Of a DNA stretch of 64,000 bases, positions 5,385 through 61,406 are shown piece after piece. The first letter of the stretch is position 1; every line of letters starts with the position of its first letter. The translations under genes and the position numbers were made by a program. The notes beneath the pieces are model-generated. The model had not been told where the DNA came from. It saw only the letters and a program-made list of their open reading frames with translations, and did not search any database. The stretch lies in contig DHER01000114.1 in assembly GCA_002399975.1 (NCBI GenBank), forward strand, positions 999 to 64,998. Reading direction: 5' to 3'. This DNA is from Firmicutes bacterium UBA4845. GTDB lineage: Bacteria; Bacillota; Clostridia; Tissierellales; Sedimentibacteraceae.

Positions 5385-6571
5385 TATTTTTTCACCTCAC
5401 TTGTCTTAGCTAAAGCATCAATAATCGTTCCATGGGGGATAACACCTAGCAATCGTTCGCCATCGACTACTACAATTGGAGCAGGCGATTGATTACCTAC
5501 TTCAAACAAATCAGCAACTAGAGTATCTTTATCAACACGGGTCACATTTGGATTTACAGCTGATTTAGCTCTTTTCCCGGTTCGCTTAGTTTCCAATACA
5601 TCCTCTGCATTTAGATAACCTAATAATTTACCTTCCCGATTAACGGCTAACAATAAATCCACACCTTCATGACTCATCTGATTCAAAATAACACTTGGTC
5701 CATCATTATCGATGTTCACCTTAATTGCCGGCACCATTATATTGCCAGCAGTTAATACTTTGGAACGATCCACTTCTTCAACGAAGTCACGGACATATTC
5801 GTTTGCAGGTTGTGTCAATATTTCTTCTCCAGTTCCGATTTGTACAATTTCACCATCTTTCATAATAGCGATACGGTCGCCGATTCTCAATGCTTCATTT
5901 AAATCATGAGTGATAAATACAATTGTTTTTTTAACTGTATTTTGTAGATCAATTAACTCATCTTGCATTTCATGGCGGATTAACGGGTCCAGCGCAGAAA
6001 AGGCTTCATCCATCAATAGGATTTCGGGATCATTGGCTAAAGCGCGGGCAATACCCACACGCTGTTGCATACCGCCAGAAAGTTGATCTGGATATTGATC
6101 TTTAAAGCTAAGTAAACCTGAATTTTCTAATGCTTTTTCTGCTCTTTCACGACGTTCTTTTTTATCAATTCCCTGAAGTTCCAGTCCATATTCGGTATTT
6201 TTAAGTATGGTTCGATGAGGAAAAAGAGCAAAGTTTTGAAACACCATGTTAATTTTGGTGCGTCTTACTTCACGCAGTCTTTTCTTATCTAATTTCGAAA
6301 TATTAACATCATCAATATAGATTTCTCCTGCAGTAGGTTGAATCAATCGATTCAGCAATCGAACCAGAGTTGATTTTCCACTACCGGATAGACCCATAAT
6401 AACAAAAACTTCATTTTCATTAATCTCTAAATTAACATTGTTAACCCCTACAGTCGCACCTGTGGCTTCGAAAATTTCTTCTTTTGATTTGTTCTGTTTT
6501 AGCATATTCAAAGCACTTTTCGTTTTCTTTCCAAAAATTTTTGTGAGATTTTTGATTCTTATTTTTCCCAT
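5384..6571 (-). CDS. opuAA: glycine betaine ABC transporter ATPase with CBS domains
   Basis: [32 protein letters not shown]-terminal CBS pair. Confidence 0.92.
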
Positions 6572-6628
6572 GTTTATTACGCTCCTTCATTCTCATGGTT
6601 TAAAAAGGAAATGTTATTAAACTACGTT

Positions 6629-6657
6629 ATGTTAACATATACCCAAATCTTTGTCAA
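6629..6657 (-). promoter_or_regulatory. SigA promoter of the opuA operon
   Basis: TTGACA, 17 nt, TAACAT with extended TG on the minus strand. Confidence 0.65.
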
Positions 6658-6896
6658 AAAGCATACATCCTGGAAGTGCGTTATACCTTAGAAAGCATCA
6701 AGCATTAAGATGACAAAATTTTTTTTTAATTGTTCTCTTATTATGCACAATTTTTCTATCAATAAACTTGAGTGTTGATTATATTTCCCTATTGTTTTAT
6801 TCATAATGATAGCATATAATATAGGATAATATGTAAGTTACCGTCGATTTCAAAATACACCATTTGCTCATGGAGAGTATAGGGAGGATCTGTATT

Positions 6897-7253
6897 ATGG
6901 ATAAATCTAATTTAGAAGTACCAAAGGATAATAATATGACTTGTAATGAAACGGTAGATAGCCACAGTGAAAAAAAACACGTTCATAGTCATAAACACCA
7001 AAGTACAAAGGCAGTATTAAATAGATTGTCTCGTGCAAGCGGGCATCTGGAATCGGTAAAACGTATGATAGAGGGTGGAAAGGACTGCAGTGAAGTATTG
7101 ATTCAGCTGTCAGCCGTAATAGCAGCCCTTAATAATGCAGGCAAGGTTATTTTAAAAGATCATTTGGAACATTGCATTGTGGATGCAGTCGAGTCAGGAG
7201 ATAAAGATGCCATAACAAATCTGAATAAGGCAATTGATAGTTTTATAAAATAA
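6897..7253 (+). CDS. CsoR/RcnR-family metal-sensing repressor (InrS-like, His-rich N-terminus)
   Basis: HVHSHKH, NRLSRASGHL, DCSEVLIQL, DHLEHC; start moved to ATG 6897 after a GGAGG SD. Confidence 0.85.
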   Translation: MDKSNLEVPKDNNMTCNETVDSHSEKKHVHSHKHQSTKAVLNRLSRASGHLESVKRMIEGGKDCSEVLIQLSAVIAALNNAGKVILKDHLEHCIVDAVESGDKDAITNLNKAIDSFIK

Positions 7254-58818: not shown

Positions 58819-58956
58819 AAATCCGTGGATGGGCCATTTATTTTATTTTAGTGTATATGCCTGTATATAAACGTGACTTGAAAATTGATGCGTTTGTCAT
58901 TCTTGCAAAATGTATATAATAATGCTATAATGATGTACATGAAAGGAGACGTAATA

Positions 58957-59223
58957 ATGCCCCAAATAAGACCAATCACTGATTTAAGAAATACCAATGA
59001 AATCTCTGACCTCTGCCATGCCAAGAAAGAACCCATATTCATAACAAAAAACGGCTATGGCGATTTAGTTGTTATGAGCATTGAAACCTTTGATTCCATG
59101 CTGGAGGAGCGCGAACTCGATGCGGCTATCGCGGAGGCTGAAGCTGAATATGATTCCGATGACAAACTTATAGATGCAAGAGAAGCACTGTCGAGGTTAA
59201 AGAGGAAACACTTTGGAAAATAA
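58957..59223 (+). CDS. type II TA antitoxin, Phd/YefM family
   Basis: IRPITDLRN, PIFITKNGYGDLVVMS; ATG 58957 after AAAGGAG; promoter TTGCAA-17-TATAAT at 58903-58931. Confidence 0.88.
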   Translation: MPQIRPITDLRNTNEISDLCHAKKEPIFITKNGYGDLVVMSIETFDSMLEERELDAAIAEAEAEYDSDDKLIDAREALSRLKRKHFGK

Positions 59224-59518
59224 ATATTCAGTAGAATTACTGCCTCGTGCATACCGCGATTTAGACGGCATATATGCTTACATTGCTGAAACGTTAATAG
59301 AACCGGACATTGCTTCTAAGTTGGTTGACTCGCTTGAAGAAGCCATTTTCAGCTTGGAAAGCATGCCTCGGCGCGGAGCTTTAAGAAAAACTGGCTCTTA
59401 TGCCAACAAAGGGTATCGTCAGCTTTTCGTTGATAATTTTACTGTTTTGTACCGTGTTGCAGAAGCAAAAAAGAGGGTTCTCGTTGTTACGGTACAGTAT
59501 TCGAAAAGCAAGCTTTAA
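59213..59518 (+). CDS. type II TA toxin, RelE/ParE family
   Basis: YSVELLPRAYRDLDGIYAYIA, YRQLFVDNFTVLYRV; overlaps the antitoxin. Confidence 0.88.
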   Translation: MENKYSVELLPRAYRDLDGIYAYIAETLIEPDIASKLVDSLEEAIFSLESMPRRGALRKTGSYANKGYRQLFVDNFTVLYRVAEAKKRVLVVTVQYSKSKL

Positions 59519-59641
59519 GAAGCCGATGTTAAAACCATGCTAAAAAATATCCGTAAAATATTCTGGCCCATAGCCGGAGTGCTGTACGGCGCGATTCAGG
59601 CAATTGCCGGACTGGCGGAACAGAGGCGTTAGCAGAATACG

Positions 59642-59690
59642 AAATTCGGGGACGGACCTTTAATTTCAAAGTTCATCCCCGAATTTTTTA
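59642..59690. terminator. hairpin between convergent TA and rsgA units
   Basis: AAATTCGGGGA...TCCCCGAATTT followed by a T-run. Confidence 0.6.
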
Positions 59691-60758
59691 TTTTTTGTTT
59701 TTATTTTTTATATATTTGCGTGCATTTTTTATGCCGCCGAAGCTTTTAAACATCTCGTTTATTTTTTTGTTTTCTATTTGTCTGGAATTTAAGCCGTCGT
59801 AGCCGGCTTCCTTTTTTAGCTTTAAATAGCTTGTAAGCCTTTCTTCCGGCAGGATTCCGCTTTCTATGGCTTCCCTGACCGCGCAGCCGGGTTCGCCTGT
59901 ATGGGTGCAGTCGCTGAACCTGCACTGTCCGGACAGCTCGTCAATGTCGGCAAATGCCCTTGACAGGTCAGCACTCTCGATGCCAAGCTCCCTCATGCCC
60001 GGAGTATCTATCACAATGCCGCCTGAGGGTAAGACCACAAGCTCCCGTTTGGTTGTTGTGTGCCTTCCTTTGTCGTCGCTTCTTGTTTCCTGGGTTTCAA
60101 ACAGATCTTTGCCGGTTAATTTATTAATCAGTGTGGTTTTTCCCACACCTGACGAGCCTATGAAGGCAACGGTTTTTCCATTTACGATATATTTTTTAAT
60201 TGATAAAAATCCGTCCTCTTTCATGCTTGAAGTGATAACAACATCCACGCTTAAAGCAACTGTCTCAAGCTCGGAGAGCATTTGCTCCAAATTGCTGCAC
60301 AAGTCCGATTTCGTGAGAACCACCACAGGTACTGCACCGCTGTCCCAGGCTACGCCTATATATCGTTCCAGCCTTCTTAGATTGAAATCATTGTTGAGCG
60401 ACATGCATATAAAAACCGTATCAATATTGGCAGCCACCACCTGTTCATTGTTGGATGTGCCGGCAGCCTTTCTGACAAATGCGCTTTTTCTGGTTAGGAC
60501 ATGATGAATGACTGCATTCCCATCCCCGTTTTCATTAAGCATCACAAAATCTCCCACAGCAGGATAGTCGGATAAATATGCTGCATTGTAGCGGAACTTT
60601 CCAGATACCTGCGCCCTTCTTTCACCGTTTTCCGTCATTACTTTATATAAATCTTTGTCCTGGGAAACAACCCTTCCTATTATAAGCTTTTCATACAAAT
60701 TCGACTCATTGATAAATCTTTCGCTGAGCCCGAAGTCTTTCATGTCGATTTTATTCAA
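59688..60758 (-). CDS. rsgA: ribosome small subunit-dependent GTPase A paralog
   Basis: OB fold PAVGD, TKSD, GSSGVGKT, GRHTTT, DTPG, CRFSDCTHTGEPGC zinc finger. Confidence 0.9.
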   Translation of the reverse strand: MNKIDMKDFGLSERFINESNLYEKLIIGRVVSQDKDLYKVMTENGERRAQVSGKFRYNAAYLSDYPAVGDFVMLNENGDGNAVIHHVLTRKSAFVRKAAGTSNNEQVVAANIDTVFICMSLNNDFNLRRLERYIGVAWDSGAVPVVVLTKSDLCSNLEQMLSELETVALSVDVVITSSMKEDGFLSIKKYIVNGKTVAFIGSSGVGKTTLINKLTGKDLFETQETRSDDKGRHTTTKRELVVLPSGGIVIDTPGMRELGIESADLSRAFADIDELSGQCRFSDCTHTGEPGCAVREAIESGILPEERLTSYLKLKKEAGYDGLNSRQIENKKINEMFKSFGGIKNARKYIKNKNKK

Positions 60759-60802
60759 TTATTATCCTCCTGAAATAAAATAATACTTTTGGAGGCATAC
60801 GC

Positions 60803-60859
60803 TTATTTTTTATATACCTCCGGAATCACTGCAATATCTAGTAGTACATCGTATATCAT
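60803..60859 (-). CDS. 18-aa leader peptide (uORF) of rsgA
   Basis: MIYDVLLDIAVIPEVYKK with SD AAGGGAG; its 3' codons form the 5' arm of a hairpin containing an anti-SD. Confidence 0.6.
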   Translation of the reverse strand: MIYDVLLDIAVIPEVYKK

Positions 60860-60918
60860 AATACAACACTCCCTTCGCGGTTTACTTAATATTTATTGCA
60901 TAATTGATATGCAAAAAT

Positions 60919-60947
60919 ATTGTACATTAAAATATCCATAAATTCAA
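60919..60947 (-). promoter_or_regulatory. SigA promoter of the leader-rsgA transcript
   Basis: Minus strand TTGAAT, 17 nt, TACAAT. Confidence 0.55.
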
Positions 60948-61133
60948 TTAAAATATTTACCAAATATTAACTGACTGAATTCGGCTGTCAGTCACATCTT
61001 TGCCTAAAATATAAATCCTGGGGAAAATAAATATCTCCGGTGAGATTTTCGGAGGGTTTATTTTTATCTCACAAAGCATTAAAAATTATTTGAAAGAAAT
61101 TATATTTGTGCTATAATACATGAAAAACATAAA

Positions 61134-61406
61134 TTGGAGAAGAAATTGGATAAAAAAAATTATAAATTTTTCCAAAATTTAAAGTGTGAATATTTTCCGT
61201 GCCATAAAACTTCTAATGAAGAAAATTTTAATTGTCTTTTTTGCTATTGTCCTTTATATATGCTGAAGGACGAATGCGGAGGCAATTATATCAAAAATCA
61301 CGGCGTCAAAGATTGTACAAACTGTCTTGTACCTCATTCAAAGGGAGGATATGAAAGGGTCATGTCTAAAATGAAGGAGGTTATAAAGAGAGGCAGTGAT
61401 TTTTAA
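61134..61406 (+). CDS. cysteine-rich small domain protein
   Basis: FFQNLKCEYFPCH, FNCLFCYCPLY, CGGNY, KDCTNCLVPH. Confidence 0.85.
   Translation: MEKKLDKKNYKFFQNLKCEYFPCHKTSNEENFNCLFCYCPLYMLKDECGGNYIKNHGVKDCTNCLVPHSKGGYERVMSKMKEVIKRGSDF

Follow-up and report, generated by a model that had tools for sequence, protein, structure and literature searches.

The ~150-nt leader of a gene for an RsgA-family GTPase, here called RsgA2, was analysed in a 64-kb stretch of Firmicutes bacterium UBA4845 (contig DHER01000114.1; the window, to whose positions all coordinates refer), where leader and gene are read on the minus strand. The leader of this monocistronic, accessory rsgA gene is probably a conserved translational switch that is operated by an upstream open reading frame (uORF) and reports ribosome traffic. 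The case for such a switch is built from the elements of the leader, their conservation, the preservation of reading frame, covariation, and the thermodynamic logic of modelled folds. The same leader was found ahead of 61 of 80 orthologues, in Clostridia, Negativicutes, Bacilli and Synergistota. A sequence-only reading of the window had described a uORF led by a Shine-Dalgarno (SD) sequence, a pairing of its end with a downstream CCTCC, and an alternative pairing of that CCTCC with the rsgA SD; all of these were present on the minus strand, with small coordinate corrections. Its logic, in which read-through of the uORF would free the anti-SD and close the rsgA SD while an absent or early-stalled ribosome would leave the SD open, was upheld by the 61 homologous leaders and by footprint calculations.

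The elements of the leader in the window are as follows.

60919..60947, minus strand: promoter-like site from a consensus scan, with a -35 of TTGAAT, a spacer of 17 nt and a -10 of TACAAT preceded by TG
60869..60876, minus strand: SD1, the SD of the uORF, GAAGGGAG, 9 nt ahead of the uORF ATG, from sequence reading
60803..60859, minus strand: leader uORF, with ATG at 60859, 18 codons and TAA at 60805-60803, product MIYDVLLDIAVIPEVYKK
60830..60838, minus strand: uORF codons 8-10, GAT ATT GCA, the window's version of a conserved GAK-ATT-GYA block
60812..60821, minus strand: 5' arm of helix H1 (anti-anti-SD), GGAGGUAUAU, within uORF codons 13-16, from folds and the covariation count
60801..60811, minus strand: loop of H1, 11 nt, containing the uORF stop codon, from folds
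60791..60800, minus strand: 3' arm of H1, GUAUGCCUCC, whose final five bases (60795-60791) are the anti-SD CCUCC shared with helix H2
60766..60795, minus strand: helix H2, predicted to sequester the SD, with CCUCC (60795-60791) paired to the rsgA SD GGAGG (60770-60766)

H1 comprised 10 bp, including two G-U pairs, and was found in both the minimum free energy (MFE) fold and the centroid fold of the window leader. Both conformers foreseen in the sequence-only reading folded when taken alone, H1 at -13.6 and H2 at -9.6 kcal/mol, the latter with an inner stem of AAGUA (60788-60784) and UAUUU (60777-60773). The rsgA gene starts with TTG at 60758, behind the SD that H2 would mask. The arrangement GGAGG-N(8-35)-CCTCC-N(8-38)-GGAGG occurred once in the window, at the leader, and in 0 of 100 dinucleotide-preserving shuffles. 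From the promoter-like site, transcription would probably start at ~60912, and the same TTGtAT ... TGTAgAAT layout was seen upstream of the Sedimentibacter-clade leaders. Contigs from two metatranscriptome assemblies joined the leader to the gene, reaching 60840 and 60822 with nothing past 60890, which is weakly consistent with a transcript starting near the predicted promoter.

The orthologues were obtained by scanning one genome per species, which gave 80 loci with proteins 61-83% identical to the window RsgA2. These loci span Sedimentibacter, Tissierella, Negativicutes (Pelosinus, Sporomusa), Desulfitobacteriia, Syntrophomonadaceae, Synergistaceae and Bacilli, the last represented by Virgibacillus, Peribacillus, Niallia, Schinkia and Ureibacillus. 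The 170 nt upstream of each locus were inspected, and 61 distinct leaders were extracted and aligned with MAFFT, the alignment not being fitted to any structure. The uORF proved conserved: it was 18 codons long in 42 distinct leaders, with the GAG of GGAGG as codon 14 in all 42, and the distance from start codon to GGAGG was 26, 29, 35 or 38 nt in 58 of 62 leaders, so that length variants preserve the frame. At the position of SD1, GGAG or GGGAG was almost invariant over 62 leaders. The uORF stop codon lay in the H1 loop throughout the family; it was TAA in 36 of the 42, and the last sense codon was AAA in 25 of 42.

H1 and H2 folded in every one of the 61 leaders, at -10 to -21 and -5 to -15 kcal/mol respectively. 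On the MAFFT alignment, 90.3% of H1 cells were paired (36-58% in slid controls), seven pairs showed changes on both sides, and 0 of 500 shuffles did as well. For H2, 82.7% of cells were paired (40-61% in slid controls), with 18 double-change cells, a number matched by 1 of 500 shuffles. Chimeras in which arms were swapped between leaders were weaker than the native helices, at -13.1 versus -15.6 kcal/mol for H1 and -8.5 versus -9.7 kcal/mol for H2. RNAalifold recovered only the 6-bp GGAGGU/ACCUCC core from the MAFFT alignment because the variable inner stems were misaligned; per-sequence folds, arm swaps and explicit pair counts were therefore used.

More distant genes also carried the leader. 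A gene with 58% identity on the 808-kb plasmid of Peptoclostridium acidaminophilum had it with H1 compensated as AGGGAGA/UCUCCCU. In Listeria monocytogenes NZ_CP030101.1 (a chromosome filed as a plasmid; L204:1913-2003), a second RsgA-like gene, 41% identical, was preceded by a homologous leader with an 18-codon uORF (MAIVKMENLIINTGVFYL), GGGGG at codons 13-14, CUCCC after the stop and a TTG start for the gene; it folded both H1 (-14.9 kcal/mol) and H2. This locus places the leader in a genetically tractable genus. The covariance models of Rfam 15 gave only chance-level matches on the window leader (E >= 0.25) and no match above gathering thresholds at the leader of 17 homologous loci, and a full-text literature search returned no paper linking RsgA to a leader peptide, uORF, attenuation or inducible resistance. 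The leader RNA is thus widespread and apparently undescribed.

In all 61 leaders the stability of H1 exceeded that of H2, with a mean difference of 5.9 kcal/mol; naked RNA should therefore keep the anti-SD locked and the rsgA SD free. To mimic a ribosome, the bases surrounding each P-site codon were kept unpaired, and the cost of opening the rsgA SD served as the readout. In free RNA the median opening energy was 1.2 kcal/mol (62 leaders). With the 3' edge of the ribosome set at +11 (43 leaders), the median was 0.8-1.3 kcal/mol for P-site codons 1-9, 3.1 kcal/mol at codon 10, and 5.8-6.6 kcal/mol at codons 11-18; an edge at +14 shifted the step one codon earlier. In the window leader the opening energy rose from 1.8-2.1 to 6.0-7.9 kcal/mol, and the Listeria leader behaved in the same way, with the open-to-closed step at codon 10-11.

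As in leader-peptide translational attenuators of the erm/cat type, a short SD-led leader ORF lies upstream of the regulated gene, and the models give alternative pairings, one hiding the SD, between which the position of the ribosome would choose. The closed ground state of erm and cat leaders, opened by a stalled ribosome, was not found: H1 prevailed in all 61 leaders and the SD was accessible in free RNA. The likeness to erm and cat drawn by the sequence-only reading thus held as far as a leader-peptide translational attenuator is concerned, and failed for the ground state, which is open. Leader-peptide attenuation is itself a textbook mechanism, and we regard the attenuator reading as well supported by the comparative evidence and the modelled energetics; from these we infer the translation of the uORF, the in vivo direction of control and the physiological signal.

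In the mechanism that we propose, the strong SD would drive translation of the 18-codon uORF, whose codons 13-16 (GGAGG...) can form H1 with the anti-SD CCUCC after the stop. While H1 stands, as would be the default of the naked RNA, the rsgA SD would be single-stranded and the gene translatable. A ribosome with its P site anywhere from about codon 10-11 to termination would hold the 5' arm of H1 in its mRNA channel, and the freed CCUCC with its flank could then pair with the rsgA SD as H2 and close the gene. The more ribosomes pass through the distal half of the uORF, the less RsgA2 would be made. Its synthesis would fall when the uORF is read briskly and rise when ribosomes fail to initiate on it or stay within the first nine codons, as might happen under translation stress, a block of initiation or early elongation, or a shortage or defect of 30S subunits.

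The stretch in which the predicted step occurs is itself conserved. Outside the Sedimentibacter clade, codons 8-10 read GAG/GAT-ATT-GTA/GCA and always lie seven bases ahead of GGGAGG; in the footprint scan, H1 stays intact with a ribosome's P site on these codons but no further along. Codon choice was narrow, with 25 GAG against no GAA, 35 ATT against one ATA and no ATC, and 30 GTA against no GTT. In many leaders the bases of these codons are complementary over 7-10 bp to a stretch just 3' of the anti-SD, and matching changes occur: GAUAUUG/CGAUAUC in one Synergistaceae leader, GAGAUUG/CAAUCUC in two others and AGAUUGUAGU/ACUACAAUUU in another. This pairing, H3, was part of the MFE fold in 21 of 57 leaders, stacked under H1 to give one long open-state hairpin. 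On the unfitted alignment H3 reached 73% paired cells versus 21-49% when slid, yet did no better than column shuffles, and it was absent from the window's clade, the partner stretch in the window being only a weak 6-bp match. We tentatively take H3 to be a clade-specific helix that strengthens the open state, and its pairing seems the likelier reason for the conservation of codons 8-10.

The regulated gene and the hairpin behind it were located as follows.

59688..60758, minus strand: RsgA-family GTPase gene (RsgA2), 356 aa, TTG start
59636..59687, minus strand: terminator-like hairpin immediately 3' of the stop codon, followed by UUUCGUAUU

The hairpin folded at -24.9 kcal/mol (z = -6.15; 0 of 200 shuffles folded as well), and the rsgA unit is therefore taken as monocistronic. 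RsgA2 scored 152.4 bits against the TIGR00157 profile (cut-off 100) and 167.7 bits against PF03193 (cut-off 30). Its translation contains the circularly permuted motifs G4 TKSD, G1 GSSGVGKT and G3 DTPG and a C-terminal zinc knuckle, CRFSDCTHTGEPGC (C-RFSD-C-T-H-TGEPG-C; pattern CxxxxCxHxxxxxC), all of them kept in 78 family members. The N-terminal OB-fold was less clear, with 21.3 bits for PF16745 (cut-off 27) and alignments to 1T9H and 1U0L that begin at residue 28-30. RsgA chains in the PDB matched RsgA2 with E = 1e-33 to 1e-29 (105-118 bits), and solved RsgA proteins do not align to its conserved basic C-terminal extension of ~40 aa (KLKKEAKY.GLNS.QIE..K..MF...GG.KNARK). The subfamily is strongly conserved over its whole length. 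TTG was the start in 46 of the 65 orthologues with a recognisable start, a proportion far higher than is usual in Bacillota; a slow TTG start may help the gene to ignore short open intervals between ribosomes on the uORF.

Several comparisons bear on the claim that this rsgA is a paralogue. The Virgibacillus orthologue scored only 117.5 bits against B. subtilis YloQ (1T9H), so in Bacilli RsgA2 is not the housekeeping gene. The high identity to YloQ expected of a housekeeping orthologue was seen neither in that score nor with the equivalog models PRK12288 and PRK12289, where RsgA2 fell far under the cut-offs. RsgA-like genes were found on 193 plasmid records, with 38-58% identity to RsgA2 among the matches listed and all below 60%, and some complete chromosomes filed as plasmids carry two or three such genes. 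An rsgA1 is named in a Listeria review, and the term rsgA2 occurs in a paper on Lactobacillus plantarum WCFS1. These comparisons support the assignment of the window gene to a distinct accessory RsgA subfamily.

The gene neighbourhoods of the 80 loci showed no conservation outside Sedimentibacter, and the leader and gene therefore appear to behave as a self-contained module. Individual neighbours were recorded. On the Lysinibacillus fusiformis plasmid pMGMM7 (L083:2423-4608), the fosfomycin-resistance gene fosM and a HAD hydrolase gene lie downstream of rsgA and co-oriented with it; the short spacer upstream of this rsgA had no obvious uORF of the window type. A Brevibacillus marinus plasmid (L082:2330-2500) carries an rsgA, 49% identical, behind a different 28-codon uORF (MRKTEIVLIHPP...) that contains the block GAGATTGT. 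At 5 of the 80 loci RsgA2 has an MFS_3 transporter gene beside it, and in Terrisporobacter petrolearius an MFS_3-type transporter gene is separated from the RsgA2 gene by a strong match to RF02862 (Enterococcus sRNA_1300; L022:4374-4601, 199.6 bits).

The leader was also found before other genes. Metagenome contigs were scanned for the pattern of the codon 8-10 block with GGGAGGT; of the 120 stretches returned, most were chance matches and about 20 were true leaders, 17 of them before RsgA2 orthologues. On Ga0209755_10017912 (L092, reverse strand, ~6610-7150), a leader with uORF MRTKKAEIVAAREVCIQ, H1 and H2 precedes the gene of a 141-aa zinc-ribbon protein with an RNHCP domain (PF12647, 120 bits), and the sequence of this leader links the RNHCP domain to what appears to be the same regulation as that of RsgA2. 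The literature searched held nothing biological on RNHCP. On OQVT01007860.1 (L129, ~5900-6270), a uORF cut down to MEIVA-stop, still seven bases before GGGAGG, lies ahead of a GNAT-like N-terminus for which Pfam gave no match.

Several observations weigh against a flow-reporting switch. Translation of the uORF and a change in expression are predictions, and an open-by-default device needs continuous translation of the uORF for repression, which makes its dynamic range in vivo uncertain. Between 17 and 19 orthologues do not have this leader. The covariation of H2 is modest, since most of its columns are conserved, and the clade of the window has a weaker H2 (-6 to -10 kcal/mol) and no H3. The metatranscriptome assemblies number two, are of low depth and may contain DNA. 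Finally, the folding energy of the whole window leader is not unusual against shuffles (z = -0.82), and the case therefore rests on conservation in relatives. This unexceptional fold is also an argument for the view that the leader has no function, its features being chance products of an AT-rich spacer, just as a U-rich stretch 5 nt past H1 could speak for H1 as the intrinsic terminator of a transcription attenuator. We consider this pair of explanations extremely unlikely: chance is excluded by conservation, frame preservation and covariation in 61 leaders of several phyla, while for a terminator H1 is followed across the family by AAAAG and not by a U-tract. The intrinsic-terminator reading of H1 was rejected after a scan had turned up no minus-strand terminator-like site in the leader, H1 included. 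A reading of the internal SD and hairpin as a frameshift site was also set aside, as the aligned leaders held no conserved slippery sequence.

Two further explanations accept the switch and differ in what would operate it. The sequence-only reading had suggested induction by ribosome-targeting drugs. In that case an antibiotic-bound ribosome would arrest at the E/D-I-V/A of codons 8-10 and lock H1 with the SD open, and RsgA2 would be an inducible factor protecting or rescuing drug-hit small subunits, analogous to the products behind erm, cat, ABC-F and hflXr leaders. The conserved codons do sit at the final P-site positions that keep H1 closed, and the nascent chain would then have 9-10 residues, the length found in the macrolide-sensing leaders ErmCL, ErmAL1 and ErmBL. 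The window's I-A-V-I resembles IAVV and IFVI, the GAGATTGT block recurs in the otherwise different Brevibacillus uORF, and the GNAT-like gene carries a variant of the same leader. The plasmid-borne RsgA-like genes and the relatives adjoining fosM and MFS_3 efflux-type transporters fit as well, and RsgA docks at the 30S decoding centre, the site of aminoglycoside binding (PDB 5UZ4, 7NAR and others). However, codons 8-10 are conserved as nucleotides, a signature of RNA constraint and not of peptide selection, and their bases pair 3' of the anti-SD in the 21 MFE folds with H3. The Sedimentibacter clade, to which the window belongs, has only a degenerate form of the motif, and the remainder of the uORF peptide is not conserved. 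The ground state is open, unlike that of erm and cat leaders; arrest just one or two codons later would have the opposite effect and shut the SD; and the literature searched reported no resistance phenotype of any RsgA paralogue. Because codons 8-10 lack synonymous variation and pair with downstream RNA, the probability of an arrest peptide is lowered, not removed, and we regard drug sensing as possible but doubtful. It is improbable that the leader serves instead to shut the gene off. The gene would then normally be on, as H1 re-forms quickly after each ribosome, and its closure would require ribosomes to linger over the distal uORF or its stop codon, because elongation is slow, the cell is starved, or termination or recycling is impaired; the cell would be spared an assembly factor when translation fails. 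Such a device would agree with the greater stability of H1 in all 61 leaders, with a closed state that exists only while a ribosome covers codons 11-18, and with the conserved AAA and TAA at the end of the uORF. It leaves unexplained why the uORF has a strong SD and ATG while the main gene has a weak TTG (46 of 65); the efficient AAA-TAA ending points to a short dwell and not a long one, and under stress a rescue or assembly factor would more intuitively be induced than repressed.

We return to the switch that reports ribosome traffic, and to what it may be for. RsgA2 could be the small-subunit counterpart of HflXr and ABC-F proteins: an accessory, horizontally mobile GTPase that would dock at the decoding region of 30S subunits unable to initiate and rescue, proofread or protect them. 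The leader would then gauge ribosome flux by means of an 18-codon test ORF behind a perfect SD, such that RsgA2, and likewise the RNHCP zinc-ribbon proteins, are made only when 30S subunits cannot start and progress. We offer this as a rather unlikely, speculative model. The regulated gene would be new, RsgA being otherwise known as a constitutive late 30S assembly factor, and the occurrence in Bacillota, Synergistota and Listeria of a plasmid-capable second copy under regulation of its own points to a small-subunit response that has gone unrecognised. The logic would be new as well: a leader that is open by default and closed by transit would measure ribosome flow, and not only drug-induced arrest. 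The leader ahead of the RNHCP gene provides a first functional lead for that domain, and the leader family is large, well conserved and present in genetically tractable organisms.

The surroundings of the gene in the window contained the following. On the plus strand, overlapping genes for a Phd/YefM antitoxin and a ParE toxin (58885-59518) are convergent with the 3' end of rsgA2. Also on the plus strand, a divergent gene (61134-61406) encodes a 90-aa cysteine-rich small-domain protein (PF04071, 98.9 bits), which is syntenic with RsgA2 solely in Sedimentibacter relatives. Between the rsgA promoter and this divergent gene, a terminator-like hairpin with T-runs on both strands (61034-61065) has no gene to terminate; a sub-threshold 'drum RNA' match (E = 0.25) overlaps it.

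Several known systems resemble the leader in part. The ermC, ermB and ermA leaders likewise have a short SD-led ORF and exclusive helices, one of which hides the downstream SD, with ribosome position picking the conformer. They use four segments and a closed ground state that a drug-arrested ribosome opens, whereas here three core segments would form an open state that a transiting or terminating ribosome closes; the erm gene encodes a methyltransferase, and the gene here an RsgA-family GTPase whose dependence on drugs is hypothetical. In cat-86 and cmlA, too, control is purely translational, and a hairpin close to the downstream SD shares its 5' arm with the leader ORF. Their hairpin contains the SD, and its melting by a stalled ribosome induces the gene; H1, in contrast, holds the anti-SD, and its melting would repress. 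The mgtL/mgtA and trp-type attenuators share the three-way competition (1:2 versus 2:3) decided by ribosome progress on an ORF overlapping segment 1, but they control transcription termination, intrinsic or Rho-dependent, while the window leader has no terminator and would control access to the SD.

At the level of the gene, canonical RsgA/YjeQ/CpgA proteins (E. coli RsgA, B. subtilis YloQ) have the same circularly permuted GTPase and zinc knuckle, and an OB domain of which RsgA2 carries a putative counterpart. The window protein reaches only 105-118 bits against the solved chains, while its subfamily shares 61-83% identity across phyla, and it differs further in the ~40-aa basic C-terminal extension, the non-conserved synteny, the uORF leader of its own and the distant relatives on plasmids. 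In Bacillota, hflXr (Listeria lmo0762, rli80) and ABC-F genes (vmlR, lmo0919), which encode accessory paralogues of ribosome-associated NTPases, likewise stand behind uORF-bearing leaders. Their leaders attenuate transcription, and both induction by antibiotics and a resistance function at the 50S subunit have been demonstrated for these systems; here control would be translational, the family binds the 30S subunit, and induction and resistance are hypothetical. The closest described systems are the erm and cat/cmlA translational attenuators and the three-segment logic of trp and mgtL; biologically, the uORF leaders of hflXr and ABC-F genes come nearest.

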